Shown: positions 1,002 to 52,038, counted from the stretch's first letter. The stretch is 64,000 bases of DNA from Chitinophagaceae bacterium (GCA_947455215.1 CANGNA010000001.1:52800-116799), one strand, 5' to 3'. The notes: generated by a model not told the origin, from the sequence alone. Numbers and translations are program-made.

Positions 1002-1036
1002 ATTGCCGAATTGTCGAATTGCCGAATTGCCAAATT
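1002..1036 (+). repeat. 8-bp tandem array (ATTGCCGA-like, about 4 units) ending 10 nt before the sdhB ATG
   Basis: attgccga attgtcga attgccga attgccaa att. Confidence 0.8.
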
Positions 1037-1046
1037 TTTTACAGTT

Positions 1047-1829
1047 ATGCAACATTACAATATGAACCTCAACCTTAAGGTTTGGAGGCAGAAGAACAGC
1101 AAAACATCCGGTGCTTTCGAAACATTCAAGGTAAGCAACATCTCTTCGGAAATGTCGTTCCTCGAAATGTTTGATGTGCTTAACGAGCAGCTGGTGGCAG
1201 AAGGCAAAGAACCTGTTGCTTTCGATCACGACTGTCGCGAGGGTATCTGCGGTATGTGCTCTATGCACATCAATGGCCGTGCACATGGTCCTTGGTCAAA
1301 AAATACCACTTGCCAGTTGCACATGCGCGAATACAAGGACGGTGATACGATCGTTGTAGAGCCATGGCGTGCAGACGCTTTCCCGGTTATTAAAGACCTG
1401 GTGGTAGATCGTAGCAGCTTCGACCGCATCATACAGGCTGGTGGTTATATCTCTGTAAACACAGGTAATGCGCAGGACGCTAACGCGCTGCCAATAGAAA
1501 AGCAGCAGGCCGATGACGCATTTGCTGCAGCAGCCTGTATAGGTTGTGGTGCATGTGTGGCAGCTTGTCCTAATGCATCAGCTATGCTGTTCGTATCAGC
1601 TAAGGTGTCTCACCTGGCACTGTTGCCACAGGGCGATCCGGAGCGCAAAACACGTGCATTCAATATGGTGAACCAGATGGACGCTGAAGGTTTCGGTAGC
1701 TGTACCAATATTGGTGCCTGCGAGGCTGAATGCCCTAAGGGTATCTCTCTGGAGAACATCGCCCGCCTCAACCGCGAATATGTTGGCTCTATGTTGTCCG
1801 GCAGCGCTGTAGAAGGTTTGCAGCAATAA
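1047..1829 (+). CDS. sdhB: Succinate dehydrogenase/fumarate reductase iron-sulfur subunit
   Basis: [22 protein letters not shown] and [12 protein letters not shown] Fe-S motifs; ATG 1047 preferred over the TTG at 1011. Confidence 0.97.
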
Positions 1830-1850
1830 TTGTTCAGAATGATCTTATCG

Positions 1851-1892
1851 ACCACATAGGTATCCGGATCCCGGCGCTTATGTGGTTTTTTT
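1851..1892 (+). terminator. Probable intrinsic terminator after sdhB
   Basis: accacatagg...cttatgtggt stem followed by a T run. Confidence 0.6.
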
Positions 1893-2051
1893 GTGTCGTT
1901 TCTGCCACATTATTGGCCTTGTTTACGTAACTGTATCTCAAGCAATGAGTAAATAATTATTTTTCGTTTTATTATTGCAGTCCATTGTTAATTTAGCGCA
2001 CAATAGTGTACATTGTGCTATATTTAAATACCGACTAATTAAGAAAAGACC

Positions 2052-2459
2052 ATGAATGCTGTTGATGCTGGTATGCCCAAGGTTGTGGTTGTAGAAGATG
2101 ATCCTACTATACAGCTGATCGTAAAACGGTCGCTCGAAAAGCGCTTTGAAGTGCAGGCCTACACCAATGGCCTGGATGCACTGGCTTTCCTCCACGAGGG
2201 TAACAATGTAGATATCATCATAGCAGACCTTAACACCCCTGAAATGGGTGGGCTTGAATTGATAGAACAGTTGAAAGCAAGTGGTTTCTTCAGTGGTATC
2301 CCGGTACTGGTGCTTTCCGGCGAGGAGAGTACAGAAAGCCGTATCAAATGCCTGGACTCCGGTGCTGATGATTACGTGGTGAAGCCTTTCAATCCGCGTG
2401 AACTGGAAGCACGCATTAATGCCATACTGAGGCGCACAGGAAAAATCTTACTCAACTAA
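2052..2459 (+). CDS. Single-domain response regulator (receiver only)
   Basis: VVVEDD, IIIADLNTPEMGG, GADDYVVKPF; no output domain. Confidence 0.9.
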   Translation: MNAVDAGMPKVVVVEDDPTIQLIVKRSLEKRFEVQAYTNGLDALAFLHEGNNVDIIIADLNTPEMGGLELIEQLKASGFFSGIPVLVLSGEESTESRIKCLDSGADDYVVKPFNPRELEARINAILRRTGKILLN

Positions 2460-2478
2460 AAGTATCTGTAGGTAGCAT

Positions 2479-3669
2479 ATGCCCGCAAACGAAAATGGTA
2501 TAATAGCATTAATAAATGTTGATGCTGCAACTTACGATATCATCAGCCAATGTAACCTTGGTGGTGCAGAGCTGATGATGTTCAAATCGGGGCTCGAGTT
2601 AAGCCAGAGGTGGGAAAAGCAAGGTCTTCAGCTTAAAGCCATTGTTTCGCAGAGCGAGGTGGTGGCGCCAATGGGCATTTACCTGCTGGAAACACTCCGC
2701 AAGCAGCACAACTTCCCCGATGTTCCTTTTGTACTGCTGGTCAACAACGTTACAGAAAATACCATAAGGCTATGCCTGCAAACAGGTGTTGCCGATATTT
2801 TCAGGTTCCCGCTGAAAAAGAATCGTTTCGAAAAAAGGATGAGCTTCCTGATTGCTAACTGGAACCTGCTGCGCAAGCGCAAGGCAAAGGAGGCAATAAA
2901 AGAATACCAGATACCACTGGCCAAGCGCTTGTTCGATATCTTTTTCTCGGGTCTTGTTTTGCTGTGTTTATCGCCATTCCTGCTCATTCTCATCATTATC
3001 ATGAAGCTGGAATCGAAGGGGCCAATTTTCTATTACTCGCTTCGAGTGGGTACCGGTTATAAGGTCTTCAAATTTTACAAGATCAGGTCTATGTATGTAA
3101 ATGCAGACCAGCGCCTGAAGGAGCTGAAGCACCTGAACCAGTATGCAGCCAGCGATAAGGTAGCCCCCGCACAGGAAATAGAACTGAACAGCCTTTGCGA
3201 TGAATGTGTGAAGAACGGTACCAAGTGCCAGCAACTGATGTACGCCGATGATAAATCGTGGTGCGAAAGGAATTATATAAAAACACGTAAAGCCCTGGCT
3301 GAAAATGCGTTTATTAAGCTGAAGAATGACCCACGTATCACCAGGGTGGGCAAGATCATCCGAAATACCAGTATCGATGAGTTGCCGCAATTGTGGAACG
3401 TGTTCATTGGCGATATGAGCATTGTGGGCAACAGGCCGCTGCCATTATATGAGGCCGAGAAGCTGACCACCGATAAATATGCTCTACGCTTTATGGCCCC
3501 CGCCGGCATCACCGGCCTGTGGCAGGTAGAGAAGCGCGGCAAGGGCGAGATGTCGTCTGAAGAGCGCATGATGCTCGACAATTCCTATGCACTCAATCAT
3601 AGCTTTGTCTACGATATCAAGTTGATATTAAAGACCATCCCCGCGCTATTCCAGAAAGAGAATGTATAA
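2479..3669 (+). CDS. Bacterial sugar transferase (priming phosphoglycosyl transferase) with an N-terminal receiver-like domain
   Basis: C-terminal KRLFDI..., DPRITRVGKIIRNTSIDELPQLWNV.GDMSIVGNRP, GITGLWQV; N-terminal ~130 aa with a REC-like pattern (PFVLL, GVADIFRFP). Confidence 0.88.
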   Translation: MPANENGIIALINVDAATYDIISQCNLGGAELMMFKSGLELSQRWEKQGLQLKAIVSQSEVVAPMGIYLLETLRKQHNFPDVPFVLLVNNVTENTIRLCLQTGVADIFRFPLKKNRFEKRMSFLIANWNLLRKRKAKEAIKEYQIPLAKRLFDIFFSGLVLLCLSPFLLILIIIMKLESKGPIFYYSLRVGTGYKVFKFYKIRSMYVNADQRLKELKHLNQYAASDKVAPAQEIELNSLCDECVKNGTKCQQLMYADDKSWCERNYIKTRKALAENAFIKLKNDPRITRVGKIIRNTSIDELPQLWNVFIGDMSIVGNRPLPLYEAEKLTTDKYALRFMAPAGITGLWQVEKRGKGEMSSEERMMLDNSYALNHSFVYDIKLILKTIPALFQKENV

Positions 3670-3674
3670 GTGTC

Positions 3675-4505
3675 ATGAGACCAGCAAGTACACCCGCATA
3701 CGTTAAGGAGATACTCGGCTATGCCAATGCAGATAAGGTGCAACTGGCTAAGTGTGCCTACGCTCAAACTGATCATACCGCTCCGCTGGTCTCTATAGTG
3801 ATACCGGCGTATAATGAGGAGGAGCATATCCTCAATCCCATTTTATCTATCAGCCGCAACACCACCAATTTTCCGTTCGAGATCATTGTTGTGAATAACA
3901 ATTCTACCGATAAAACCGGCGAACTGGCAGCATCCACAGGTATCACCTGCATACTGGAAACAAAGAAGGGTGTTACAGCAGCCCGCACTGCCGGATTAAT
4001 GGCAGCTAAGGGCAAATACGTCATCAATGCCGATGCAGATTCTATCTACCCCAAAGAATGGATCAATGAATTGATCAGCCCTATGGAGCAGGATGATAAA
4101 GTAGCGCTTGCTTATGGCAGGTTTGCCTTTATGCCCGATAAGATGACCGGCCGCTTCAGCTACTTTCTCTACGAGAACCTGGCAGATTTGCTCCGTTTAT
4201 ACAAGCGTACAATGAAGGATGAAGCCATGAATGTGTATGGCTGTAGCTCTGCATTCCGTAAAGCCGATTGTCTGAAGGTAGATCTGTATGAACATCCGCC
4301 CGGCACAGGCGAAGATGGCTGGCTGGCATTAAAGCTGCGCGACAAAGGTTTTGGCCGCCTGCATTATGTAAGCACCATGAAGGCATTGGTATGGACCATA
4401 GACCGCCACCTGCAGCAGGATGGCGGCTTATGGAAAGCACTTGCCATGCGCGTAAAAGGTGTGTTCTTCGGCTCCGATCCCGATAAGTATCATGTCAAGG
4501 GGTAG
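3675..4505 (+). CDS. Glycosyltransferase family 2
   Basis: SIVIPAYNEE, IVVNNNSTD, DAD motif. Confidence 0.92.
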   Translation: MRPASTPAYVKEILGYANADKVQLAKCAYAQTDHTAPLVSIVIPAYNEEEHILNPILSISRNTTNFPFEIIVVNNNSTDKTGELAASTGITCILETKKGVTAARTAGLMAAKGKYVINADADSIYPKEWINELISPMEQDDKVALAYGRFAFMPDKMTGRFSYFLYENLADLLRLYKRTMKDEAMNVYGCSSAFRKADCLKVDLYEHPPGTGEDGWLALKLRDKGFGRLHYVSTMKALVWTIDRHLQQDGGLWKALAMRVKGVFFGSDPDKYHVKG

Positions 4506-14203: not shown

Positions 14204-14266
14204 GAATTGAGCCATTCAGCTACCCGGCTTGTCACCCTGAGCTTGTCGAAGGGCATTGAGCCATTA
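14204..14266. repeat. GAGCCATT octamers flanking a GTCACCCTGAGCTTGTCGAAGGG repeat, directly after the birA stop
   Basis: gaattgagccattcagc ... gtcaccctgagcttgtcgaagggcattgagccatta. Confidence 0.7.
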
Positions 14267-14998
14267 ATAAGCCCATACCGCCTGCCCATGCACGTAGTTC
14301 TTTATAGTGCCGTCTTCCAGCTGCACCGCCAGCGTGCCATCCGCATTAGCATGTAGTATGGTGGTATTTACCGGCTGGTCGTCCTCCAGCAGCACCTGCT
14401 GTTGCCCCCGGCGGAAGAGTAGGGCATTATAATCTTTCAGCAGGGTAGCAGCATCTTTAGGAAAGCTGGTGGCGTAGAAGATCGCCTCACGCAGCGCATT
14501 CAATATGGTTCGCCTGTCAAAGTCCTTACCCGATGCTGCCTTAAGAGATGTGGCATGTGGCAGCTCTGCAGGAAACGATGGCTGCAATATGTTAAGGCCC
14601 AGGCCTATCACCGCGTAACTCCAGTTACTGCCACGTAGCACATTTTCTATCAGTATGCCGCCTGCCTTTTTGTCATTAATAATAATGTCATTGGGCCATT
14701 TCACCTGCACCTGCCAGGTGTCGTGCAGTTGTTGCAGTTCGTTAACAATGGCCGTAGCCACGGCGGCGTTGAACAGGAATTGCTCGGCCAGCGTGTGTTT
14801 AGGGGCTATTATCATGCTCATCAGCAGGCTCTGGCCGGGTATGTCTACCCACGTGCGGCCGCGTTGCCCCTTGCCTGCCGTTTGCTGGTTGGCCACTATT
14901 GTCAGGCCCGGGTGTGCCTTATTGCCATCTATCAGTTGCATGGCATAGTTATTGGTGCTATCTGTTAAATCCAGCTCAATAATATGGGCATCGGGCAT
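14264..14998 (-). CDS. birA: Biotin-[acetyl-CoA-carboxylase] ligase (no N-terminal HTH)
   Basis: DSTNNYA, QTAGKGQRGRTW, KWPNDI, KAGGILIEN. Confidence 0.95.
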   Translation of the reverse strand: MPDAHIIELDLTDSTNNYAMQLIDGNKAHPGLTIVANQQTAGKGQRGRTWVDIPGQSLLMSMIIAPKHTLAEQFLFNAAVATAIVNELQQLHDTWQVQVKWPNDIIINDKKAGGILIENVLRGSNWSYAVIGLGLNILQPSFPAELPHATSLKAASGKDFDRRTILNALREAIFYATSFPKDAATLLKDYNALLFRRGQQQVLLEDDQPVNTTILHANADGTLAVQLEDGTIKNYVHGQAVWAY

Positions 14999-26430: not shown

Positions 26431-28227
26431 TTATTCGTCCAGTTTCAACACTGCGAGGAAGGCTTCCTGTGGTACGTCTACGTTGCCGAACTGGCGCATA
26501 CGTTTTTTGCCTTCTTTCTGTTTTTCCAGGAGCTTGCGCTTACGGGAGATGTCACCACCATAACACTTGGCGGTAACGTCTTTGCGCATAGCCGAAATGG
26601 TTTCGCGGGCCACTATCTTAGCACCTATGGCTGCCTGTATGGCTATTACGAACTGTTGTTTAGGTAAGAGGTCTTTCAGCTTGTTACACAGCTTGCGGCC
26701 AAAGTCTTGTGCGCGGCTGCGGTGTATGAGTGCGCTAAGGGCATCCAAAGGCTCACCATTCAGTAGTATATCCATCTTGCAGATATCGCTCTCACGGTAA
26801 TCTATAGGATGGTAGTCGAACGATGCATAACCACGGGTGCATGATTTAAGACGATCATAGAAGTCGAACACGATCTCTGTCAGCGGCATATCGAACAATA
26901 TCTCTACACGGGTAGGGGTGAGGTAGTTCTGGTTAATGAGCACGCCACGCTTATTAAGGCACAGGCTCATGATGTTACCTATATAGTCGGGCAGGGTGAT
27001 GATCTGCGCACGGATGAACGGCTCTTCGATACGATCGAGTCCGCTTGGTTCCGGCATTTCGCTCGGGTTATTCACTATCAGGCGCTTTTCTTTATCGCGC
27101 GTTTTGTAGGCGTAGAAGCTAACGTTGGGTACAGTGGTGATCACCGTCTGGTTGAACTCGCGCTCCAGGCGTTCCTGTATGATCTCCATATGGAGCATGC
27201 CGAGGAAGCCGCAACGGAAACCGAAGCCCAGCGCCTGCGATGTTTCGGGCTCAAAGGTGAGCGAGGCATCGTTGAGCTGGAGTTTTTCCATGCAATCGCG
27301 CAGGTCTTCGAAGTCGTCGGTCTCTACAGGGAAGATGCCTGCAAATACCATTGGCTTTACTTCCTGGAAACCCTTTACAGCCTCTATGCCGGCATTGGCC
27401 ACGGTGGTGATGGTATCGCCCACCTTTACATCGCGGGCATTCTTTATGCCGGTGATGATGTAGCCCACATTGCCCGCCGACATCTCTGTCTTAGGCGTTA
27501 GCGTGAGTTTCATTACACCGATCTCATCGGCAATGTATTCTGCATCGGTATGTATGAAGCGGATCTTATCGTTCTTCTTCATAGTACCGTTAAATATCCT
27601 GAAGTAAGCTATGATGCCACGGAACGGATTGAACACGCTATCGAAGATAACCGCCTGCAGGGGAGCGTTAGGGTCGCCCTTTGGTGCCGGTATACGTTCT
27701 ACAACCGCTTCAAGAATGCCTTCTATGCCTATGCCCGACTTGCCACTGGCCAGCAGTATCTCTTCAGGCTTGCAGCCTATCAGTTCTACTATCTGGTCGG
27801 TAACTTCCGGTATCATGGCACCATCCATGTCTATCTTATTGATGACAGGGATGATCTCGAGGTCGTTATCCAGCGCCAGGTACAGGTTAGATATGGTTTG
27901 TGCCTGTATGCCCTGCGATGCATCTACCAGCAACAGTGCGCCTTCGCAGGCAGCCAGTGCGCGGGATACTTCGTAAGAGAAGTCTACGTGGCCGGGTGTA
28001 TCGATGAGGTTGAAGATATATTTCTGCCCCTTCAGCTCATACTCCATCTGTATGGCGTGGCTTTTGATGGTGATACCCTTTTCGCGTTCAAGGTCCATGT
28101 CGTCGAGCACCTGGGCCTGCATGTCGCGTTGAGAGATGGTCTTGGTATGCTCTAAAAGACGGTCTGCCAGGGTACTTTTACCGTGGTCGATATGGGCAAT
28201 AATACAGAAATTCCTAATGTTTTGCAT
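26431..28227 (-). CDS. lepA: Translation elongation factor 4
   Basis: [43 protein letters not shown]. Confidence 0.99.
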
Positions 28228-28238
28228 AATAAGAGGGG

Positions 28239-28246
28239 CAAAGATA
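28239..28246 (-). promoter_or_regulatory. -7 box (TATCTTTG) of the lepA promoter
   Basis: Matches TAnnTTTG, 11 nt before the ATG. Confidence 0.6.
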
Positions 28247-28254
28247 CATCATTT

Positions 28255-28405
28255 AATGGCTCAATGGCTGAATGGCTCAATGGCTGAATGAATTTGATAA
28301 TTGAGGGTAATGTGGTGGAATGTAGCAATGTGATAGAATGTGATGGAATGTGTTGGAATGTGTGAGAGTTTCTGGTATTTGAAATTTGGAACTTGGGATT
28401 TGGTT
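28255..28405. repeat. Three stacked short tandem arrays: 8-mer AATGGCTS x4, 10-mer AATGTGnTRG x5-6, 7-mer GGnATTT-like x4-5
   Basis: Read directly at 28255-28290, 28309-28363 and 28374-28405. Confidence 0.85.
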
Positions 28406-28559
28406 TCAGTTTTTGTCTGCAATGCAGTGTTAATATAGGGCACCAATCACTATGAGAACCAATATTTTGTTTTTACTTTGCGTTGCCAGCCCCGAGGGGT
28501 TAAATAGCATTATTATTTTTATCAATCAAAAAAATGCGTGTAGCTACATATATTTGCCC

Positions 28560-29015
28560 ATGAGATTGGAGGAAGCATTGAAGACGACGAATTTTGCCAA
28601 CGAGACGCATAAGGCCACGCTGAACCTGATATATACCACTTATTGGTTGCGCAGCCATTTTACCGGTGCTATGAAGGACCATGGCATCACTATGGAGCAA
28701 TTTAATGTATTGAGGATATTGAAAGGTAAGCACCCGGAGCAAATGTGCGTAAAGGACATAGGCAGCAGGATGATAGAGAAAAGCTCGAACGTGCCACGTA
28801 TCATTGATAAGTTGATATTAAAGGAACTGGTGGAGCGTGGTCAATCGGCAGAGGATAAACGGGAGACCCTGGTAAGGCTTACAGATAAAGGCGTAGCGCT
28901 GTTGCAGGAAGCCAATGCTGCGCTTGAGGTATCTACAAAAGGGATATTAGGGCTCACCGAAGATGACGCAACCCAGCTGAATATGCTGCTGGAAAAGATG
29001 CGTAAGGTGGATTGA
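28560..29015 (+). CDS. MarR-family transcriptional regulator
   Basis: ITMEQFNVLRILKG, NVPRIIDKL, DKRETLVRLT; TATATTTG 3 nt upstream of the ATG. Confidence 0.93.
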   Translation: MRLEEALKTTNFANETHKATLNLIYTTYWLRSHFTGAMKDHGITMEQFNVLRILKGKHPEQMCVKDIGSRMIEKSSNVPRIIDKLILKELVERGQSAEDKRETLVRLTDKGVALLQEANAALEVSTKGILGLTEDDATQLNMLLEKMRKVD

Positions 29016-29021
29016 TGTTTG

Positions 29022-29165
29022 AAGTAGAAAGTAGAAAGCTGTTTTGTAAGAAGTATCGATAGCAATAGAAAATAAATAACATAAATAGAAATGGCCCGAA
29101 GCATATGTTTCGGGCCATTTCTATTTATGACTGTAGAAAAGCTTAAGACTTTCTACTTTCTACTT
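29022..29165. repeat. 17-bp perfect inverted pair of AAGTAGA heptamer repeats (29022-29038 / 29149-29165)
   Basis: aagtagaaagtagaaag ... ctttctactttctactt. Confidence 0.85.
29081..29128. terminator. Bidirectional terminator between marR and accC
   Basis: Perfect 20-bp stem ataaatagaaatggcccgaa / ttcgggccatttctatttat. Confidence 0.9.
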
Positions 29166-29173
29166 ACGACTAA

Positions 29174-30511
29174 TTACAACAGCTTGAAGCTTTCGATGAA
29201 TTTGGTAGTGAAGTTGCCTGCGCGGAAGTCGGGGTCGCGCATCAGCTGCATGTGGAAAGGTATGGTTGTTTTCACACCTTCTATCACATATTCGCTAAGG
29301 GCGCGCTCCATTGTATTGATGGCTTCTTCGCGGGTCTGGGCTACTGCGATCACCTTAGCGATCATAGAATCGTAATAAGGCGGGATGGTATAGCCTGCGT
29401 AGATATGCGAGTCGACACGCACACCGTGGCCACCCGGCGTGTGCAGGGTAGTGATCTTGCCAGGGCACGGACGGAAATCGTTGTACGGATCTTCGGCATT
29501 GATACGGCACTCGATAGCGTGGATCTTTGGTTCGTAGTTCTTACCGCTGATAGGTATGCCTGCTGCGATCTTGATCTGTTCTTTGATCAGATCGTAACTG
29601 ATCACTTCTTCAGTAACACCGTGCTCTACCTGGATACGCGTGTTCATTTCCATGAAGTAGAAATTGCGGTGCTTGTCTACCAGGAACTCTATGGTACCAA
29701 CACTTTCGTAGTTGATAGCAGAGGCTGCCTTGATAGCTGCTTCACCCATCTTCTGGCGCAGTTCCGGCGTCATGAACGGAGAAGGTGACTCTTCTACCAG
29801 CTTCTGGTGACGACGCTGTATAGAGCAGTCGCGCTCAGACAGGTGACAAACGGTACCAAACTGGTCGCCGGCAACCTGTATCTCTATATGGCGGGGTTCT
29901 TCAACGAACTTCTCCATATAGATACCATCGTTCTTGAAAGAAGCTGCTGCTTCTATCTTGGCGGTATTATAGGCATATTCCAGTTCGCTTTCTTCCCATA
30001 CCACGCGCATACCCTTACCACCACCACCTGCAGTGGCCTTAATGATAACCGGATAGCCCATGGCTTTAGCAATACCCTTGGCTTCGTCCACGCTCTGCAA
30101 CAGACCGTCGGAGCCAGGTATCACGGGTACGTTGGCCTTTATCATGGTTTCCTTCGCAGTGATCTTGTCTCCCATAGAGTTGATCATCTCCGGCGTAGGG
30201 CCAATGAATTTGATATTGTATTTGGCACATATCTCGGCAAACTTGGCATTTTCTGCCAGGAAGCCATAGCCCGGGTGAATGGCGTCGGCATTGGTAATTT
30301 CTGCCGCTGCCATTATATGCTGTATGTTCAGGTAAGAGTCGCTGCTCTGTGCCTTGCCTATGCATACTGCCTCGTCGGCAAAGCGCACGTGCAGGCTCTC
30401 CTTATCGGCAGTAGAGTATACTGCAACGGTACGGATGCCCATCTCGCGGCAGGTACGAATGATACGCAGTGCGATCTCACCCCTGTTGGCAATCAGTATT
30501 TTTTTAAACAT
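29174..30511 (-). CDS. accC: Acetyl-CoA carboxylase biotin carboxylase subunit
   Basis: [43 protein letters not shown]; the TTG at 30529 lies in the repeat and is not the start. Confidence 0.98.
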
Positions 30512-30519
30512 CTTTTTCA

Positions 30520-30557
30520 AATGGCTCAATGGCTTAATGGCTCAATGGCTTAATGCT
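30520..30557. repeat. AATGGCTY x4 octamer array just upstream of the accC start
   Basis: aatggctc aatggctt aatggctc aatggctt aatgct. Confidence 0.9.
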
Positions 30558-30635
30558 TTTGCCTTCGGCAACAAATGGAGCAATACCTTAATTATTTACT
30601 CCATTGTCATTAGCTTTTGTGCCGCCGTTGATATT

Positions 30636-31004
30636 TTATTGTTTAACCAAATTTTTTCTCGCAGTGTTTATTATGGAGCCAACTACTTTGTTGACCTCTT
30701 CCAGCTTTTTTATCAGTACTGAGCAATCGGGGTATGTTTCACTGTAATCGCAAATCCATAACCAGTATTGCGTTTCTTCAGCTTCCTTACCTGCTATCCT
30801 CATTTTATGAAGGAAGTCGGCCTTGCTTTCTGCATTCTGAGCTTCCATTGCATTTGCACCTATCGAAGTTCCGGAACGTAATAGCTGCCTTGCTACAATA
30901 AACTTTTTATTTGCTTCCAGCACCTCGCAATATTCAATGATCATCAGAGAAAAGTCGAAAGATATTTTAAGAACAGGATTCTTATCGAACACTTCTTTTC
31001 TCAT
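30636..31004 (-). CDS. Four-helix-bundle protein (TIGR02436 / 23S rRNA IVS protein / Avd-like family)
   Basis: QLLRSGTSIGAN..EAQ.AESKADF.HK..IA.KEA.ET.YWL signature. Confidence 0.93.
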   Translation of the reverse strand: MRKEVFDKNPVLKISFDFSLMIIEYCEVLEANKKFIVARQLLRSGTSIGANAMEAQNAESKADFLHKMRIAGKEAEETQYWLWICDYSETYPDCSVLIKKLEEVNKVVGSIINTARKNLVKQ

Positions 31005-31034
31005 GTTGTTTCATTGGATAGTGTAAAGATCCGG

Positions 31035-31074
31035 AATTGAGCCATTGAGCAATTCAGCCATTGAGCAATTAAGC
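31035..31074. repeat. ATTGAGCC-type octamer array, inverted relative to 30520-30557, overlapping the accB stop
   Basis: aattgagcc attgagca attcagcc attgagca attaagc. Confidence 0.9.
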
Positions 31075-31560
31075 AGGTTCAACAAGGAACAGTGGCTGAT
31101 CGTACTCAACAGGAGAAGAGTCGTCTACCAGTACCTTTACCACGCGGCCGCTCACTTCGCACTCGATCTCGTTGAAGAGCTTCATGGCTTCGATGATGCA
31201 TACTACCTGGCCTGCTTTCACTTCATCGCCTACGTTCACGAACACCGGCTTGTCAGGGCCAGGGCTGCGGTAGAAAGTACCGATCATTGGAGACTTGACA
31301 GTTACAGCTTTTGATGAGCCGGCATCAGCAGCAGGAGCAGCCGGTGCAGGAGCAGCAGCGGCAGGCGCTGCCGGTGCAGGTGCCGCCATTTGTGGCATAG
31401 CCATAGGCATGGCAGGTGCTGCAGGCATAGCATAAGTAACCTGGCCGGCAGAGAATTCCTGTTTGATGGTGATCTTGAAATCGCCGTCTTCAATGCTCAG
31501 TTCGCTGATGCTTGATTTATTGATCGTTTTTATCAGCTCCTGTATTTGCTTATATTCCAT
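31069..31560 (-). CDS. accB: Acetyl-CoA carboxylase biotin carboxyl carrier protein
   Basis: Ala/Pro linker, SPMIGTFY, EAMKLFNEIE. Confidence 0.98.
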   Translation of the reverse strand: MEYKQIQELIKTINKSSISELSIEDGDFKITIKQEFSAGQVTYAMPAAPAMPMAMPQMAAPAPAAPAAAAPAPAAPAADAGSSKAVTVKSPMIGTFYRSPGPDKPVFVNVGDEVKAGQVVCIIEAMKLFNEIECEVSGRVVKVLVDDSSPVEYDQPLFLVEPA

Positions 31561-31713
31561 GAATATTCAATTTTAGGAAAAGTAGTTATTTAATTCGGGT
31601 TGAAAATTATGTCAAAAAAAGCGAAAGACAATAATACTAATAAATTGCTACCTGATGTGAACCAAACTTCAACTTATTAACCTTATTGCCTTTCAGACTG
31701 GCTGTATACACCC

Positions 31714-31750
31714 AATTGAGCCATTAAGCTATTGAGCCATTAAGCCATTG
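31714..31750. repeat. Orphan GAGCCATT octamer array just after the efp stop
   Basis: aattgagccattaagctattgagccattaagccattg. Confidence 0.9.
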
Positions 31751-31756
31751 CAAAAA

Positions 31757-32323
31757 CTATTCTTTCACGCGTTCTACGTATGCTGCTGTTTTTGCATCTA
31801 CCTTGATCAGGTCGCCTTCGTTCACGAACAATGGCACCTGTACGGTTGCACCTGTTTCCAGCGTTGCAGCTTTCATTGCACGGGTGGCAGTATCGCCCTT
31901 CAGGCCCGGCTCAGAGTAGGTAACACGCAGGTTAACGCTCGATGGCAGTTCTACGCTCATTGGCATTTCTGAATCTGTATTGAAGATAACGAAGCACTCC
32001 TGGCCGTCTTTGTACAGTTCCGGATGTTCTACCATGCTTTCAGCAATGATGATCTGCTCGAAAGAGGTATTGTCCATCAGGTTGAAACCGCTATCGTCTT
32101 TGTACAGGAACTGGTAGTTGCGCTTTTCTACGCGAACGGGGAAAATGTTATCACCAGAGTTCCATGTGTGCTCTATTGTACGGGTATTATCAACACCTTT
32201 CAGTTTGGCCCACACCTTAGCTGCAGCGCGTGCAGTTTTGTTCTGGCCAAATTCTACCACTGAATAAAGATTGTTGTCAAGCTTGATGATCAAGCCTGTA
32301 CGCATGTCTGCTGTTGTAGCCAT
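31757..32323 (-). CDS. efp: Elongation factor P
   Basis: MATTADMRTG, EPGLKGDTAT, VQVPLFVNEGDLIKVD; TACATTTG box at 32352-32359 (-). Confidence 0.96.
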   Translation of the reverse strand: MATTADMRTGLIIKLDNNLYSVVEFGQNKTARAAAKVWAKLKGVDNTRTIEHTWNSGDNIFPVRVEKRNYQFLYKDDSGFNLMDNTSFEQIIIAESMVEHPELYKDGQECFVIFNTDSEMPMSVELPSSVNLRVTYSEPGLKGDTATRAMKAATLETGATVQVPLFVNEGDLIKVDAKTAAYVERVKE

Positions 32324-32697
32324 GAAATTATTTATTTTTTTATACGGACTGCAAATGTAAGGAATGATGTTGAAATAAAGTATATCGGGTTGAGCAGTTA
32401 TTTGTCTTTTATGCAAGGCGCAAAATCTGCGAATAATGAATTATTTAAAGACTTTTGCAACGCTGCAAAAATGATAAATAGCAATTAAACGGGTGTACTT
32501 TATTTCAACATCGTTACGCAACATAAAAAGGATAAAGAAAAATCGGAAGGCGGCGGCAGGGTGGTGTTGTGGAAAAATACATGCCTGCCTGGCGCAATAG
32601 CTTGTGCTTCCTGACGCAGATGGACCACTTTTTGACGTTTTTCTCCCTTACGGTGTAGTGGCTGCACAGTACATTTGATCCATAAAACACACAACAT

Positions 32698-45622: not shown

Positions 45623-45644
45623 GACGGTAAGGGCATGTGGCGAT

Positions 45645-45684
45645 AAACAATAAGGGCCGCCCGGCGGCGACCCTTATTGTTTTT
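45645..45684 (-). terminator. Terminator directly after the 72-aa ORF
   Basis: aaacaataaggg...cccttattgttt. Confidence 0.75.
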
Positions 45685-45903
45685 TTAGCCCTCTTGTACT
45701 GTGGGACTGTAGTAGTTAACCTGTACGGTGTACCATGGTTTGTTAGGATCGTTGGTGGGGGTGACGACCACGGGCTGTATGTGGAAGTTGCTCATGGTGC
45801 CGGCATCTATGCCTGCCCTGATAAATTGGTTGACTACATCGGTTACAGAGGCTATAGTGCCATGTACGCCTAATACTGAGAATACTGCTGTTTGGTTGGT
45901 CAT
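45685..45903 (-). CDS. Small hypothetical protein (72 aa)
   Basis: A/C-rich leader typical of Bacteroidota; own terminator. Confidence 0.6.
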   Translation of the reverse strand: MTNQTAVFSVLGVHGTIASVTDVVNQFIRAGIDAGTMSNFHIQPVVVTPTNDPNKPWYTVQVNYYSPTVQEG

Positions 45904-46263
45904 AGTTTATGTTTTTGGTTTGTGTTTATGTTTATGGTTTGGTTTTGATTTGTAGGGGCTGCCCTTAGACTATTTTTCCTCTGTAGCGAAGTCAAAAAAG
46001 ACATAGCAGAACTGTTTTTTGTTTCCTTTGCTTTTAGAACACTACGCTGAACAGGATACTGCTGTCTGGTTGGTCATAGTTTATGTTTTTTGGTTTGTGT
46101 TTGTGTTTGTGTTTGTGTTTGGTTTGTGATGGCAAAGACTATGCTTGTTTTAAGTGGAGTCTATGTTTGATGTTATTAAACTTTTACTTTTTGTCTTTCT
46201 CTTCTATTTACCCTATAGTCTGAGCTGAAATTGGTACAGTACAATACCATTATTTTATTGCCT

Positions 46264-46761: not shown

Positions 46762-46803
46762 AATATTGCTTAATTATTTTATTTAATAATACATCTTGTA
46801 ATG

Positions 46804-47092
46804 TTCCGTCCTCGGAGAGTTTCTCTCATAGGCTTTGCGCAGCCGAGGACTCGCCGATATCGGGCGGGCGTAAGTGTGTCCATATTGCTCGAACCAATAC
46901 TTTTCAATGCATTCGGTCATATGAATAACATGTAGAACCCTTGTTGGCCTGTCTTATAAAATCCTGCAGAACTATACGTGGGTTTGTTTATTGGTATATT
47001 ATAAAGATACGATATTTTCATGCCCATCCGATATCGCCGGGTCCTCGCTGCGCGCAATGCCAGCGCACTGAGAGACCCGGCGAGGACGGAAA
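46804..47092 (-). mobile_element. Non-autonomous, internally deleted RAYT derivative (both REP ends plus the gene termini)
   Basis: Left REP 46804-46868; copy of the RAYT 3' end 46871-46980 fused to a copy of the RAYT 5' end 46981-47022; right REP 47023-47089. Confidence 0.88.
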
Positions 47093-47122
47093 TATGTGCT
47101 AAGATATCAGGTAGGTACCGCA

Positions 47123-47566
47123 CTATAACCCCTTGATATGTTGTTGGCTAAACAGTTCGGTTTCGCCATCGTAAAAGGTGGCATCGTGAAACTTGCCGTT
47201 GATCCAGGCATATTTTGCTACCAACACTTTATTGTAGTCCCAATCAGTATAAGGGTAAATATTCATTCTTTCATTTACCCCTTTCTCGCCGCTTTTATCA
47301 TATTTGAAAAAGACAATGAGGCACAATGAGTGATCTTCTCGCTCTGAAGGAATGTGACCCTTCACATAATCAGTGATGGAATCAAAAACTTTAGTGTTTT
47401 TTATATCAAAATTCTCTATGCCATATATCATCTCACATGTAGCAGGCCAGCACAACTTATCTTTCCATTTAAGATCAATGAACTTTAACGGCAGATGCTG
47501 TCTATTATGTACACAGGAAAGTAACGAAACCAATAAGAGCAGATAAAGAACTTTAAATCCTGTCAT
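47123..47566 (-). CDS. Hypothetical lipoprotein lying between the mini-RAYT and the RAYT
   Basis: Lipobox SLLSC; AT-rich. Confidence 0.72.
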   Translation of the reverse strand: MTGFKVLYLLLLVSLLSCVHNRQHLPLKFIDLKWKDKLCWPATCEMIYGIENFDIKNTKVFDSITDYVKGHIPSEREDHSLCLIVFFKYDKSGEKGVNERMNIYPYTDWDYNKVLVAKYAWINGKFHDATFYDGETELFSQQHIKGL

Positions 47567-47592
47567 ATATATTAAATGTTATTCTTATAATG

Positions 47593-47658
47593 TTTCCGTC
47601 CTCGGCGAGTCTCTCGCATAGCCTTTGCGCAGCGGAGGACTCGCCGATATCGGGAGGG
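47593..47658. repeat. RAYT-flanking REP (3' side), inverted relative to the 5'-side copies
   Basis: tttccgtcctcggcgagtctctc...gaggactcgccgatatcggg. Confidence 0.88.
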
Positions 47659-47659
47659 T

Positions 47660-48256
47660 CTAAGTGCGCCTATATTGTTCGAACCAATACTTTTCAATGC
47701 ATTCGGTCACATGAATAACATTGTACACCCCGTGTCGGCCTGTCTCATAAAATCCTGCGGAACTATGTGTGTAGTCTCCCGGGAACTGTACGAGATCCCA
47801 TTTTTTGCTGACCGGGTTGTTATGAATATAGTTTAATTTTTGATTGATGAATGCATATGAGTGACACAATTTAGCATCGAATGATGGCTTAAACACTTCA
47901 TGCAACTTGCCGTTATTCTTGTCGGAGGTGGAAACGCCAGCCGAAAGTACAGATAGTATATCTGTACTTTTGTTCAACTTTAATCTATTTACAATATCAT
48001 ACGCCATGAAGCGCTTTGCGTTGCCGATCATAGTATTAATGCTTTGTGTGCCTGGAGTAAACCCTATCAATGCATGAATGTGATTAGGCATGATAACATA
48101 ACCGGTGACGTGGTGACCCTTTTGCTGCAAAATGTCGAACCATTTATAAACCAGGTCATACGCATTGGTCAGTTCAAATAACAGTAGCCATTTGAAGTTA
48201 GTAAATGTGATAAAATATATGCCCGGCTGGTAGAGGTGGGGTTTGTTTACTGGCAT
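47660..48256 (-). mobile_element. REP-associated tyrosine transposase (RAYT, IS200/IS605 TnpA-like HUH-Y1)
   Basis: YFITFTN..W, YVIMPNHIHAL (HUH), KLNYIHNNPV (catalytic Tyr region), HSSAGFY; flanked by inverted REPs. Confidence 0.92.
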
Positions 48257-48281
48257 AGGATGAAGATACGATTTTTTGCTG

Positions 48282-49088
48282 CCCACCCGATGTCGCCGGG
48301 TCCTCGCTGCGCGCAATGCCGGCTCACTGAGAGACCCGGCGAGGACGGGAATGTATGCCCGGCTGGAGGAGGTGGCGTTTTTTTATTGGCATAGGATGAT
48401 TTTTTGCTGCCCACCCGATGTCGCCGGGTCCTCGCTGCGCACAATGCCGGCGCACTGAGAGACCCGGCGAGGACGGAAATGTATGCCCGGCTGGAGGAGG
48501 TGGGGTTTGTTTACTGGCATAGGATGAAGATACGATTTTTTGCTGCCCACCCGATATCGCCGGGTCCTCGCTGCGCGCAATGCAGGCTCACTGAGAGACC
48601 CGGCGAGGACGGAGACGTGACCCGGCTTGGTGCCCCATGTGCTGATTGTTGGTGCCAACACCAACAATTGCGGGTATCCCACCCGATATCGCCGGGTCCT
48701 CGCTGCTGGGCAATGCCGGCGCACTGAGAGACCCGGCGAGGACGGAGACGGGTCGCACTTTACCTTGTCGCGGAAATACTCTACCGGGTGCGGGTCTACC
48801 GGGTCTAAAGGATCACCATCTTTTATCAGGTCTTTCAGCATATTGTCCAGGTTGTTGAGATCGACCATGGTAAAGCTTTCGGGGTAGCCGTTGCTGTTTC
48901 GCAAGCGGGACGCTTGCCATAGTGGAGGACGAAGCGGGACGCTTACGACCAGTGTGGGTACTAATACTGCTTAGCGCCCCGCGTGCTGATCGTTGGTGGG
49001 AACACCAACAATGGCGTGTATCCCACCCGATGTCGCCGGGTTCTCGCTACGCGCAATGCCGGCGCACTGAGCGACCCGGCGAGGACGG
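48282..49088. repeat. Array of five 67-68-bp REP units (48282, 48410, 48546, 48678, 49022) with two embedded REP2 copies (48627-48671, 48971-49015)
   Basis: cccacccgatRtcgccgggtcctcgct...agagacccggcgaggacgg repeated. Confidence 0.92.
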
Positions 49089-49157
49089 GAGAAAGCTGAA
49101 GGTGCGCAACAAGGAAGCACTGCTACATGAGCTATACGAGATAGGGCTGTGAGGGGG

Positions 49158-49664
49158 CTAATGTGTTTCCGATCTGCTGATGACCTTAGACTTTTGCCAG
49201 TCACCCAGGTATTTTGACGGGGTTATGACCATGCAGCCCATCACTATGAGCACCACGAATGTGCGGACCAGGATATTGCGGTAGAACTGCAGGTGCTTTG
49301 ATGATTGCAGTATGACGAGTATGATGGTGAACAGCAGGTTGATACTGCCTATGGCATACACCACTTTGGGACTATTGTAGCCGTAAACAAGAAAATACAG
49401 TATGCCTGCTATAGAGAGCGAGAGTATGCCGGAGGCGAGTATGGCAATGGCCACGCGGGCGAAGGTGACTTGTGCATAGCTGCTTTTTTTCAGGCAGTTG
49501 CGCAGGCGCACATCGTTGAACAATAGTATGCCCCCCAGCAGGTATAAAGCGGCCAGGCATATCAGCGCCAGCGCTATAACGGGCCTGCCGCCTGCTATGG
49601 TCAGCAGGTTCATCAGCACGCCGGTCAATGCCATCAGGGCAAGTACTTTTTCCAGGAATTTCAT
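49158..49664 (-). CDS. Hypothetical multi-pass membrane protein
   Basis: About five TM segments. Confidence 0.7.
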   Translation of the reverse strand: MKFLEKVLALMALTGVLMNLLTIAGGRPVIALALICLAALYLLGGILLFNDVRLRNCLKKSSYAQVTFARVAIAILASGILSLSIAGILYFLVYGYNSPKVVYAIGSINLLFTIILVILQSSKHLQFYRNILVRTFVVLIVMGCMVITPSKYLGDWQKSKVISRSETH

Positions 49665-49739
49665 GCGCTGTAAAGATAGGGTTATGCTACATTACTTGGC
49701 CATGGTTGCCACCCGGCACCTTTTTCGTTAGGAAAATAA

Positions 49740-50414
49740 TTACTGATCCTCATCTTTGTTCAGTACCACATTTATCCGACCGTGCTCTGATCTTACGGTA
49801 TAGCTCAGATATACCGCCTGACCATCAGCCAGCATGAATTCTACGTCGTAGTCGGCATATTTGGTAGACTGGTCGGTGATAGTAGACGATATGATCTTAG
49901 GTTTATTATCGGCGAAATATTTTGCACAGCCGTAGGCGTATAATACAGGGAATTTGTGTTCAATATCAGGCAGATTGATGATAGTGCCTTCGTATAAACC
50001 TTTGTTTTTCAGATCATTATTGCCGGTCAGAAATATAACTTTAGACGGATCGTCTTTGCTGATATCTTTATCGTGTATGCCATAGTAAGCCAAAGAATCG
50101 GTCTTGTCTTTAGAGAGTGTAAACCAATAGGTGGTCCGGATGCCATCGGTGGTCGATCTCTTATCTTTTTCGGTTATCCTGGCGATCTCTGACGCACACA
50201 GAGATCTGATATTAGCTGCGCTGTATATGATAAACGCTTTAAATGCTATTGAATCTTTGTTGTACCCTAATCCGTCTATTTGGTTAGCGTCGGCCGGTGA
50301 TTCTATTTTTTGAGTAGCACTCCCTTCATGTGCCTCGGGATCGTAATTGGCAGGTTCATCTCCGCAACTGGTCAACAGTCCTGTTAAAAGACAAGCAAAA
50401 AGGAAATTGCGCAT
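49740..50414 (-). CDS. Hypothetical lipoprotein
   Basis: Lipobox LLTSC; TATCTTTG box upstream. Confidence 0.78.
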   Translation of the reverse strand: MRNFLFACLLTGLLTSCGDEPANYDPEAHEGSATQKIESPADANQIDGLGYNKDSIAFKAFIIYSAANIRSLCASEIARITEKDKRSTTDGIRTTYWFTLSKDKTDSLAYYGIHDKDISKDDPSKVIFLTGNNDLKNKGLYEGTIINLPDIEHKFPVLYAYGCAKYFADNKPKIISSTITDQSTKYADYDVEFMLADGQAVYLSYTVRSEHGRINVVLNKDEDQ

Positions 50415-50611
50415 AATATTATTTCTTAAACCCAGCTCAAAGATATTGTGTTTTGGAGCATTTCAAATAGTGCATAATGCCGGCGAAAGTTAAATTTTAT
50501 TGCCGTTCATTAACTATTTCGACCGTTCGTGAACTTCTTAATGAAGCTGTTATGTATTGTTATTAACCTTGTATCGAAATTGATTATGTAACAAGATAAA
50601 AATGATCGGTT

Positions 50612-50707
50612 ATGAAGTACGTTACATTTACATTATCCGTGTTCCTGCTGCTGTTTTATGTTGCCGCGGCCTGCGCTGTGTTTTATTTCATTTTTAAGAG
50701 CATCTGA
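50612..50707 (+). CDS. Putative 31-aa single-TM small protein (below the ORF-track cutoff)
   Basis: MKYVTFTLSVFLLLFYVAAACAVFYFIFKSI; A-rich upstream region; hairpin at 50781-50810. Confidence 0.45.
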   Translation: MKYVTFTLSVFLLLFYVAAACAVFYFIFKSI

Positions 50708-50780
50708 CCTCCTTTTCGCCTTTTTATTTTTATTTAAATAATATTATTTATCAATAATATTGATGTCTGCGTTGGCTTTC

Positions 50781-50810
50781 AAAAGCACCAAATTAATCTT
50801 TGGTGCTTTT
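50781..50810. terminator. Bidirectional-type terminator hairpin
   Basis: aaaagcaccaaa-ttaatc-tttggtgctttt. Confidence 0.75.
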
Positions 50811-51042
50811 TGCACATGCTGTTAAAAACTAAAGCCCAATTCTTCTGTTTCTGCAATTACATTTGCTAAAGGTCGTCAGTAAAATTTACCAATTACGCAT
50901 CTGGCAGGCTGCTCATACCAAAAGCGGCCGCAACAAAGAGGTGATAAACTATCGGAAAGGCATCAGCAAAATGCCCGCAGGTTGTGGAAAGGGGTGAGTT
51001 GTCGGCGTAAGCCAGACCTTGAAAAAGAGCAACAGCAATTGT

Positions 51043-52011
51043 ATGAACGATAACGAAATACTGCTTAAGGACAATAAAGACAGGTTTGTTATACTGCCTA
51101 TTAACTATCCCAGGATATGGGAGATGTATAAGAAGCACGAGGCCAGTTTCTGGACCGCAGAGGAGATAGACCTTAGCGGCGATATGAAGGACTGGACCAA
51201 CCTCAACAACGGGGAGCGCCATTTCATTTCTCATGTATTGGCATTTTTTGCGGCCAGCGATGGTATTGTGAACGAGAACCTTGCGGTGAATTTTATGCGC
51301 GAGGTGCAGATACCTGAAGCGCGTTGTTTTTATGGTTTCCAGATAATGATGGAAAACATACACTCTGAGACCTACGCGTTGCTGATAGACACCTATATCA
51401 AAGATCCGATGGAAAAGGATCGCCTGTTCCATGCCATAGACACTGTGCCTGCGGTTAAGAAAAAAGCAGAGTGGGCACTGCGCTGGATAGAGCAGGGTTC
51501 TTTTGCGGAGCGCCTGGTGGCGTTTGCTGCGGTAGAGGGTATTTTCTTCAGTGGCAGTTTCTGTTCTATATTCTGGATGAAGAAGCGCGGTTTGTTGCCG
51601 GGCCTTACGTTCAGCAACGAATTGATCAGCCGCGATGAAGGTATGCACTGCGAGTTTGCCTGCTTGTTGTATAGTATGCTGAGCAATAAGCTGAGCCAGG
51701 AAGCTGTGTACAAAGTGATAGCTGACGCGGTAGCTATAGAAAAAGAGTTTATTTCTGAAGCATTGCCGGTAGACCTGATAGGTATGAATGCACGCCTGAT
51801 GCAACAGTACATAGAGTTTGTTGCGGACAGGTGGCTGGGTGAGCTGGGTTACCCTAAAATGTTCAATGCCAGTAATCCTTTCGATTTCATGGAAATGATA
51901 TCGCTGCAGGGTAAGACCAACTTCTTTGAGAAAAGGGTGGGTGATTACCAGAAGGCCGGTGTGTTGGGTAACAAAGACGAACAGACATTCTCCCTGGGAG
52001 AGGATTTCTAG
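51043..52011 (+). CDS. nrdB: Class Ia ribonucleotide reductase beta subunit
   Basis: [44 protein letters not shown]. Confidence 0.97.
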
Positions 52012-52013
52012 CT

Positions 52014-52038
52014 AAGTAAAAAGTGAAAAGTAAAAGTG
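52014..52038 (+). repeat. AAGTRAA heptamer array just after the nrdB stop
   Basis: aagtaaa aagtgaa aagtaaa agtg. Confidence 0.6.

Follow-up and report, generated by a model that had tools for sequence, protein, structure and literature searches.

Oriented short tandem arrays at gene boundaries in a Chitinophagaceae chromosome segment and in other Bacteroidota

Introduction

Why should short tandem repeats sit at the very edges of bacterial genes, and why should each of them point away from the gene that it touches? The question is raised by a stretch of 64,000 nucleotides from a Chitinophagaceae bacterium (GCA_947455215.1, CANGNA010000001.1:52800-116799), which we analyzed as a whole and call the window. 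It is a segment of a Bacteroidota chromosome, the nearest relatives of its genes are found in Chitinophagaceae such as Flavipsychrobacter, and lake and freshwater metagenomes contain its DNA. A first-pass annotation, made from the sequence alone, had noticed an octamer that is tandemly repeated as AATGGCTY after the stop codons of birA, accB and efp and as the reverse complement, RAGCCATT, before the start codons of accC and lepA. It had also reported heptamer arrays after the stops of marR, accC and nrdB and another octamer array before sdhB, all within about 30 nucleotides (nt) of a start or stop and none inside a coding region. It took these arrays for the left and right ends of a directional cassette and linked them to genes for four-helix-bundle or GxxExxY proteins. 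We find each of these arrays where it had been reported, and the gene names agree with NCBIfam (Table 1). The reading as a cassette fares less well and is taken up in the Discussion.

Results

A single polarity rule

The two forms of the octamer reduce to one rule: when the array is read as AATGGCTY, the abutted gene always lies on its 5' side, irrespective of the direction of that gene. AATGGCTY follows stops and RAGCCATT precedes starts because in either case the ATG-bearing strand leads off the abutted gene. Every array that we located in the window, using Tandem Repeats Finder and direct reading, fits the rule. The window is 86% coding, yet its arrays with at least three copies and a period not divisible by three are all intergenic, 0-27 nt from a start or stop, which agrees with the placement first described. 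The tandem repeats within its genes have about two copies or are codon repeats. The doubled octamer has 14 matches in the window as against 0.19 expected, and two arrays repeat perfectly with a super-period of 16 nt.

Does the rule extend beyond this one locus? Five consistent octamer arrays are insufficient alone (the chance is about 1 in 16), and the polarity was therefore tested in other genomes. A scan for AATGGCTY x3 across 185,579 species genomes yielded at least 114 loci. A second, independent scan was made for AATGTGCT-type arrays, the unit AATGTGCTRATGTGCTRATGTG having been seen in other genomes, and yielded at least 120 loci, nearly all of them from Bacteroidota and from many orders. 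Together with an accB query, the two scans supplied 314 loci (L081-L394) of the 394 fetched in total. All counts from these scans, here and below, are counts among the matches listed. Genomes are unevenly sampled in them and orthologous loci are not independent of one another; gene boundaries outside the window are greedy calls of long open reading frames (ORFs), exact for stops and inexact for starts.

In Chitinophagaceae-like loci, the neighboring gene on the 5' side of the AATGGCTY array is the nearer one in 34 cases and that on the 3' side in 7 (p = 2.5e-5), or 14 versus 4 when each locus contributes one array. Of 41 arrays, 28 are at most 30 nt from the 5' neighbor and 4 from the 3' neighbor; a single array out of 55 falls within a long ORF. 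The AATGTGCT-type arrays of Bacteroidota give 137 versus 22 (159 arrays from about 90 loci; p = 1.7e-21) and, with one array per locus, 77 versus 13. Their median distance is 22 nt to the 5' neighbor and 149 nt to the 3' neighbor, and 3 of 212 oriented arrays lie inside long ORFs. The polarity is present in all four configurations of flanking genes, with splits that range from 13 versus 3 to 51 versus 12. In the second scan, it amounts to 38 versus 4 in convergent spacers between two stops, and to 23 versus 3 for the solo arrays in such spacers. We also assembled a unit-agnostic set, consisting of arrays of period 7, 8 or 10 in the loci that accB or the four-helix-bundle gene had retrieved; the spacer between accB and accC was left out. 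These arrays contain 81 ATG and 10 CAT when read on the strand that points off the adjacent gene; 31 of them have more ATG than CAT and 6 the reverse (p = 4e-5).

AATGGCTY arrays from other phyla (Proteobacteria, Acidobacteriota, Chloroflexota, Bacillota and others) are unbiased, at 31 versus 28, and some of them lie inside ORFs. Those with three or more copies (L081-L194) come from Burkholderiales, Vibrio, Shewanella, Acidobacteriota, Chloroflexota, Planctomycetota, Bacillota and one Methanomicrobia archaeon. They are often long, with up to 18 units, they stand next to the variant units AATGACTC, AATGGCCC and AACGGCTC, and they have no gene-boundary polarity; we found nothing recognizable among their neighbors in the fetched loci.

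The orientation is thus non-random beyond the window, as the first-pass annotation had anticipated, and the polarity holds across Bacteroidota in the samples examined and generalizes strongly. What is polar is the single array with respect to its abutting gene; the polarity is not the scar of a directional cassette. Replication direction was considered as the source of the polarity and rejected: GC skew is positive throughout the window, while the arrays point both ways, following their genes. We hold the descriptive claims made in this and the following sections (placement, polarity, restriction to intergenic DNA, co-varying complementary arms and turnover) with high confidence.

Placement, units and turnover

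The arrays stand close against the genes. In the second scan, of the 73 arrays next to a stop codon, 41 begin 0-4 nt past it, and the fraction of arrays at most 10 nt from the 5' neighbor is 0.41, compared with 0.09 for random placement. Growth of the arrays toward genes was rejected as the cause on logical grounds, since internal expansion leaves the flank distances unchanged. As tandem expansion cannot shift an array toward a gene, the abutment at 0-4 nt must reflect either where arrays are born or what they do.

Most arrays are octamers of the type AATG-N4, with the consensus A-ATG-(T/G)-G-(A/C)-(T/A), and 8 is the commonest period. The modal array has 4-5 units and measures 34-37 nt, the distribution extends to about 20 units, and several unit families can coexist in one genome, the window included. 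Units of the AATGNNNT type (28255-28290, 30520-30555 and the fetched loci with AATGTGCT) can be read as two-codon mini-ORFs chained by UAAUG with a frame shift at each unit, e.g., AUG GCU UAA UG or AUG UGC UAA UG. As a common feature of the arrays such UAAUG-linked mini-ORFs were rejected, because a T precedes AATG in only about 40% of the unit consensuses. The array next to birA is split by an insert, CCCTTCGACAAGCTCAGGGTGACAAGCCGGGTAGC (14216-14250), which has no second copy in the window and no match in any of the 394 fetched loci.

Turnover of the arrays is fast and strain-variable. Between locus L295 (6083-6228) and a rumen metatranscriptome contig (run X16), 146 nt of arrays are swapped for 83 other nucleotides, with flanks that are 95-97% identical. 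Many RNA contigs match the array only, so that arrays are present in RNA libraries, where carry-over of DNA is possible. On a Chitinophagaceae chromosome (OZ257130.1; L053, 2790-5460), nine AATGTGCA-type arrays surround five genes, one of them a four-helix-bundle gene, within about 3 kb. Arrays are found there at almost every gene boundary, and array density therefore varies greatly among genomes. In runs X1 and X2, Logan DNA contigs from the window organism break off or are mis-joined precisely at the octamer arrays (28000-32500), from which it follows that the arrays fragment short-read assemblies.

Paired arrays and the accB-accC spacer

Where two arrays share a spacer, most pairs are convergent: the matches listed comprise 18 '+-', 6 '-+', 7 '--' and 1 '++' pairs in the first data set and 34 '+-', 9 '-+', 11 '--' and 6 '++' pairs in the second. 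Most convergent pairs enclose just 23-111 nt, and the '-+' pairs merely bracket ordinary genes (e.g., L154, 4654-5511).

Here we consider the pair between accB and accC. In the window its arms (31035-31075 and 30520-30555) are the inverted flanks of a 568-nt insert that contains the four-helix-bundle gene, and the predicted fold of the accB-to-accC transcript has a 27-bp stem, formed by the two arms, around the whole four-helix-bundle ORF (z = -4.2). A relative of about 91% identity, seen as a lake metatranscriptome contig (run X13), has accB joined straight to accC without the 568 nt (30510/31079). Another close relative, L096, has the arm before accC only and lacks both the gene and the other arm. 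When loci were sampled by accB, the gene was present at 2 of 79 Bacteroidota accB-accC junctions. We pooled the accB-accC spacers of at least 80 nt from the two data sets, whether they hold the gene or not; in 99 of these 119 spacers the arms form a duplex at least as stable as -15 kcal/mol. Of 55 gene-less spacers, 37 fold with z < -2. Inverted arrays of 7- or 8-mers are visible in many gene-less spacers, among them those of Niastella, Flavobacterium and Chryseobacterium. Because most gene-less spacers of this length carry complementary arms, the array hairpin predicted at accB-accC is phylum-wide, with the four-helix-bundle gene an occasional occupant of its loop. Over the 119 spacers, the first 45 nt past the accB stop contain 240 ATG and 39 CAT, and the last 45 nt ahead of the accC start 14 ATG and 265 CAT.

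About half of all arrays are solo. We looked for a hidden partner of these, and their 3' side is no more complementary than shuffled sequence. Nor is there a conserved non-array tail beside the arrays; the adjoining regions share only further arrays. A scan of the window for the intrinsic-terminator consensus returned a single site, in the loop between the two heptamer arms (29081-29128), and none in the arrays, while elsewhere some right arms are followed by T runs (L340). Since the heptamer pair lies between two stops and encloses this bidirectional terminator-like hairpin, it is probably contained in both 3' untranslated regions.

The four-helix-bundle gene

The ORF at 30636-31004 is, judged by its profile matches, a clear member of PF05635/TIGR02436. 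It scores 83.7 bits against TIGR02436 (cut-off 24; E = 9e-24) and 70.3 bits against PF05635 (cut-off 33.8), and phmmer aligns residues 5-118 of its 122 with chain A of PDB entry 2RLD (E = 7.8e-21), an entry with five chains. Its context is accB and accC and not a 23S rRNA intervening sequence, a location that is not needed for membership. The position between accB and accC is kept in 75 of the 80 best relatives, which are Chitinophagaceae loci, and a period-8 array is present on the accB side in 53 of these loci and on the accC side in 61.

The flanking units differ from genome to genome (AATGGCTC, AATTACTC, AATGTGAA, AATGTGAT, GCTAATGT, AATGTGCA and TAATTAGC), and the two arms vary together. 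In 47 genomes the left unit agrees with the reverse-complemented right unit at 6.7 of 8 positions; the permutation mean is 5.2 and none of 2,000 permutations exceeds 5.85. The arrangement array-gene-array recurs away from accB and accC in L066 (Longitalea, between a pssA-like gene and rsmI), in L340 (Carboxylicivirga) and in L053.

A general association of arrays with four-helix-bundle or GxxExxY genes, as the first-pass annotation had suggested, did not emerge. The 314 loci L081-L394 contain only 6 four-helix-bundle genes. Outside accB-accC we rejected the association, having found only L340, L066, L053, L208 and L225 and no further case in the gaps of the window. No GxxExxY gene, transposase or reverse transcriptase was noticed beside arrays in the fetched loci.

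PF05635 resembles Avd, the accessory protein of diversity-generating retroelements (DGRs), and CDD family cd16375 unites Avd with the proteins that 23S rRNA intervening sequences encode (PMC10053308). The 568-nt insert holds this ORF only, with accB and accC as its neighbors and without a reverse transcriptase, template repeat or variable repeat. As none of these adjoins the ORF, it is not the Avd of a DGR.

Discussion

What are the arrays for? The reading that we favor, at a probability of about 0.45, is a functional one, in which they are boundary repeats similar to the repetitive extragenic palindromic (REP) sequences and bacterial interspersed mosaic elements (BIMEs), combined with avoidance of AUG before starts. 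On this view the arrays belong to a class of short tandem repeats that is spread across Bacteroidota, evolves fast and keeps to intergenic DNA, a boundary family like REP and the short tandemly repeated repetitive (STRR) sequences. They fill the outermost nucleotides of the spacer, tight to a stop or slightly upstream of a start. They would be transcribed as the 3' and 5' untranslated ends of neighboring genes, and paired arrays may behave as REP/BIME hairpins do, delimiting or stabilizing messages between or after cistrons. The 27-bp stem around the PF05635 gene may mirror the RNase III-processed 23S rRNA intervening sequences that house such genes. The orientation before starts could come from selection against upstream AUGs in translation that does without Shine-Dalgarno sequences; AUG is depleted around start codons in Bacteroidetes, whose ribosomes disregard Shine-Dalgarno sequences (PMC6847099).

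Several observations weigh against this reading. Solo arrays between two stops are polarized as well, at 23 versus 3, and avoidance of AUG cannot account for this. The published depletion is modest (a ratio of about 0.6; PMC6847099), compared with an asymmetry of more than 15-fold here. The reading explains neither why arrays past stops, whether solo or convergent, hold one orientation nor how units become uniform within a genome. The arm duplexes are equally stable in sense and antisense, with equal G-U counts. We accordingly rejected selection specific to the sense RNA of the arms; the sense RNA is not singled out, and a cause at the level of DNA is equally compatible. The lack of a hidden partner means that hairpin formation is not the function of the solo half of the arrays. 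Finally, in the search for RNA evidence a single metatranscriptome contained 5-8% of the window's words, and these stem from the relative of about 91% identity and not from the window organism itself. A boundary-oriented function, a trans-acting keeper (e.g., the four-helix-bundle protein) or an orientation signal at the DNA level may be involved.

In the proposal of a mobile directional cassette, four-helix-bundle (or GxxExxY) genes are carried by small elements whose terminal inverted repeats are the arrays, and solo and gene-less arrays are scars or miniatures. Part of it stands. The accB-accC pair does flank a 568-nt insert, the unit of array, four-helix-bundle gene and array is found at three or more unrelated genomic sites, one relative lacks the entire unit and L096 lacks the gene and one arm, arrays that share a spacer are mostly convergent, and the gene-less pairs 23-111 nt apart resemble miniature elements. 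It is only partly supported, because about half of the arrays are solo, without a degenerate partner, a conserved internal sequence or tail, or a transposase. Moreover, four-helix-bundle genes number just 6 across L081-L394, 77 of 79 junctions are gene-less while the arms at accB-accC are phylum-wide in the absence of the gene, no target duplication was seen (these were not systematically searched), and ends that lie 0-4 nt from stop codons fit no known insertion mechanism. We therefore consider the cassette unlikely. Neutral microsatellites, made anywhere by slippage and cleared from coding DNA by selection, would account for arrays that are hypervariable among strains, for the tail of copy numbers to about 20 and for AATGGCTY arrays that in many other phyla have no polarity and sometimes fall in ORFs. 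They do not predict the polarity of 137 versus 22, the abutment of 0.41 versus 0.09, a modal length near 35 nt, complementary co-varying arms or an AATG core common to the units, and this explanation is already disfavored and in our view highly improbable.

It is tempting to suppose instead that the PF05635 protein, as an Avd relative that binds nucleic acid and is probably oligomeric, recognizes the octamer arrays in trans and spreads, homogenizes or uses them, as a repeat and its keeper might do in the manner of REPINs and the REP-associated tyrosine transposases (RAYTs). Its own gene would then be bracketed by the array of the genome in inverted copies, just as REPs bracket RAYT genes, and its vertical retention at accB-accC (75 of 80 loci) and the co-variation of the arms with genome-specific units would be natural. 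The gene's flanks share their unit with dispersed arrays in 4 of the 5 genomes common to both data sets (CAISOH01, CAIRZD01, NZ_PPSL01 and JABDBX01); the Longitalea flanks are GCTAATGT and the dispersed arrays there AATGTGCT. The modal 4-5 units per array also recall the five chains of the 2RLD homologue, a match of pentamer and five units that is a numerical coincidence until binding is established. On the other hand, AATGTGCT-type arrays are phylum-wide and not lineage-specific, one genome may hold several unit families, the fold has no known catalytic activity and no reverse transcriptase or nuclease adjoins the gene, and the array-bearing genomes sampled extend to Flavobacterium, Chryseobacterium and Bacteroidales, which may or may not all carry such genes. 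We think such a keeper distinctly unlikely. Alternatively, the arrays could be oriented insulators of DNA or RNA at gene boundaries: RNA that enters a gene would be the AUG-free, stop-rich strand and RNA that leaves it the AUG-rich one, which would suppress translation and favor termination of read-through or antisense RNA, or the orientation would serve protein binding. This fits a polarity that follows the gene boundary and not the gene direction in all four configurations, solo arrays between two stops included, as well as the tightness of arrays against the boundary and the equal pairing of both strands, which is compatible with a DNA-level property; for the units AGCACATT and RAGCCATT, the strand that enters the gene is free of AUG and contains a stop in every frame. 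It is at odds with the units themselves, which have no Rho-loading composition in common (AATGGCTC has G equal to C, and AGCACAUU is without YC dinucleotides), and no binding protein is known. A terminator per gene inside operons (efp-accB-accC, nrdB and its downstream ORF) would require new promoters. Insulation of this kind seems improbable to us. A wider idea, for which we see little likelihood, is that oriented octamer arrays mark the gene edges of Bacteroidota as a functional system of their own, either with the Avd-like PF05635 protein as keeper of the repeats or as boundary signals, UAAUG mini-ORF chains included, that govern the translatability of RNAs entering and leaving genes in a phylum without Shine-Dalgarno recognition.

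How do the arrays compare with known repeats? Like REPs, BIMEs and REPINs of Proteobacteria, they are short, genome-specific and dispersed intergenic repeats, often directly past stop codons or between the cistrons of an operon, with inverted doublets that commonly form hairpins, one conserved gene between inverted copies, and a sequence that changes between genomes while the architecture stays. Unlike these, the arms are tandem 7-10-mers and not a single imperfect palindrome of 20-40 nt, the solo half cannot self-fold, the polarity relative to the abutting gene is unusually strict, the phylum is Bacteroidota, and the flanked gene is PF05635 and not a tyrosine transposase of the IS200/IS605 type (RAYT). 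No RAYT flanked by arrays was found: in the window, L001-L080, L208, L225 and L340 the only array-flanked gene is PF05635, and whole genomes were not searched for RAYTs. The STRR sequences of heterocystous cyanobacteria are likewise 7-nt tandem intergenic arrays with several unit families per genome, as are the window's heptamers AAGTAGA and AAGTRAA, but they belong to another phylum and have other units, while the arrays here, apart from three heptamer arrays in the window, mostly have period 8 and an AATG core. We know of no description of boundary polarity, stop-codon abutment or convergent complementary pairing for STRRs, which the papers retrieved touch on only briefly.

The 23S rRNA intervening sequences with a PF05635 ORF (Leptospira, Coxiella and others) also place the gene in a loop that is closed by a long stem of inverted flanks, as part of a longer transcript that covers essential genes. 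Here the host is the accB-accC protein operon, the arms are tandem octamers and the stem is a predicted one. Gene-less convergent pairs 23-111 nt apart resemble miniature inverted-repeat transposable elements (MITEs), which are dispersed intergenic elements with terminal inverted repeats; they differ in having no conserved interior, arms that also occur singly, periodic ends of variable copy number and no partner transposase, and no target-site duplication was noticed, with no systematic search for one. Avd is a basic, pentameric protein that binds nucleic acid and the reverse transcriptase. In sequence and structure it is like PF05635, the family of the window gene, and cd16375 groups it with the 23S intervening-sequence proteins (PMC10053308); the window gene differs in adjoining accB and accC in place of a reverse transcriptase and its template and variable repeats. 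The arrays thus lack what defines REPs and REPINs, STRRs, 23S intervening sequences and MITEs, have a lifestyle in common with REPs and STRRs, and add to this kind of intergenic repeat a form with unusually strict polarity. We found no description of the arrays or of their polarity in the literature searched, outside which most subscription journals fall, so that an earlier description is possible.

If the rule is as general as the samples indicate, a large phylum with gut, rumen, soil and freshwater lineages would carry a machine-readable mark at many gene boundaries, a free aid in calling starts and stops in Bacteroidota genomes. The arrays would contribute to variation among strains and cause assemblies to break. 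They would also give access to two problems, namely the delimitation and expression of cistrons in the absence of Shine-Dalgarno sequences and the role of the widespread "orphan" PF05635 proteins, whose placement in the accB-accC loop parallels the 23S rRNA intervening sequences.

Features of the window

In Table 1 we list the arrays of the window with the genes that they adjoin. Rfam and tRNA scans of the window gave no matches, and no rRNA was found.

Table 1. Arrays, neighboring genes and related features, with positions counted from the first nucleotide of the window
Feature	Position	Strand	Context and basis
sdhA (C-terminal part)	63-887		NCBIfam
Octamer array ATTGCCGA x4.4 (minus strand AATTCGGC)	1002-1036	-	10-25 nt upstream of sdhB start, pointing off sdhB
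sdhB	start 1047 or 1062		NCBIfam
AATGGCTC array	14205-14263	-	Abuts birA stop; two half arrays around a 35-nt insert (14216-14250)
birA	14264-14998	-	Stop 14264-14266; NCBIfam
lepA	26431-28227	-	Start 28227; NCBIfam
AATGGCTS x4.5 (grouped with AATGGCTY arrays)	28255-28290	+	Solo; 27 nt from lepA start, points off lepA; RAGCCATT in lepA sense; perfect 16-nt super-period
AATGTGRNGG array, 8-10-mers x5.4	28309-28362	+	Same direction as octamer array 28255-28290
Weak 7-mer array	28373-28403		Downstream of AATGTGRNGG array
MarR-type gene	28452-29015		NCBIfam
Heptamer AAGTAGA x2.4	29022-29038	+	6 nt past stop of MarR-type gene; left arm of inverted pair
Terminator-like hairpin, 20 bp, T-rich tails on both strands	29081-29128	.	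In loop of heptamer arms, convergent genes on either side
Heptamer AAGTAGA x2.6	29148-29165	-	8 nt past accC stop; right arm, exact inverted copy of 29022-29038
accC	29174-30511	-	Stop 29174-29176, start 30511; NCBIfam
AATGGCTY x4.5	30520-30555	+	RAGCCATT in accC sense; 8 nt upstream of accC start; operon-wise the arm after the four-helix-bundle gene
Gene for 122-aa four-helix-bundle protein, TIGR02436/PF05635 (23S rRNA intervening-sequence protein family; related to Avd)	30636-31004	-	Loop between octamer arms
AATKGCTS x5	31035-31075	-	Begins within accB stop codon; operon-wise the arm before the four-helix-bundle gene
accB	31069-31560	-	Stop 31069-31071; NCBIfam
AATGGCTY x4.5	31715-31750	-	Solo; 6 nt past efp stop, 155 nt before accB
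efp	31757-32323	-	Stop 31757-31759; NCBIfam
GTTTRT(G) array	45905-45945	+	Abuts start of small minus-strand ORF; ATG-bearing strand points off ORF; possibly a different repeat family
nrdB	51043-52011		Stop 52009-52011; NCBIfam
Heptamer AAGTRAA x3.6	52014-52038	+	2 nt past nrdB stop; 66 nt before ORF 52105-54501
ORF downstream of nrdB	52105-54501		Probably nrdA; unannotated in this analysis

A second GTTTRT(G) array lies at 46089-46128. Both arrays of this type are upstream of a minus-strand ORF of about 68 amino acids and give it a CA-rich leader in the sense direction (45700-46130). A truncated second copy of the 5' end of this ORF is found at about 46040-46078, and the region may hold a repeat family of its own or a small-peptide gene that was duplicated.

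Other repeats of the window are of different kinds. The imperfect GCAGCA/30-nt repeat at 31322-31380 lies within accB, where it codes for the Ala/Gly-rich linker of the biotin carrier protein, and is an ordinary coding repeat, unrelated to the arrays; TGAAAG hexamer repeats, seen in relatives upstream of the four-helix-bundle gene, likewise fall inside accB. A repeat family of about 128 nt (48213-48609, 46980-47086, 48678-48742 and 49022-49085) comprises three tandem copies and dispersed partial ones at 88-96% identity. Because it overlaps both of the mechanically called minus-strand ORFs at 47660-48316 and 48383-48904, these two may be spurious or derived from the repeat.

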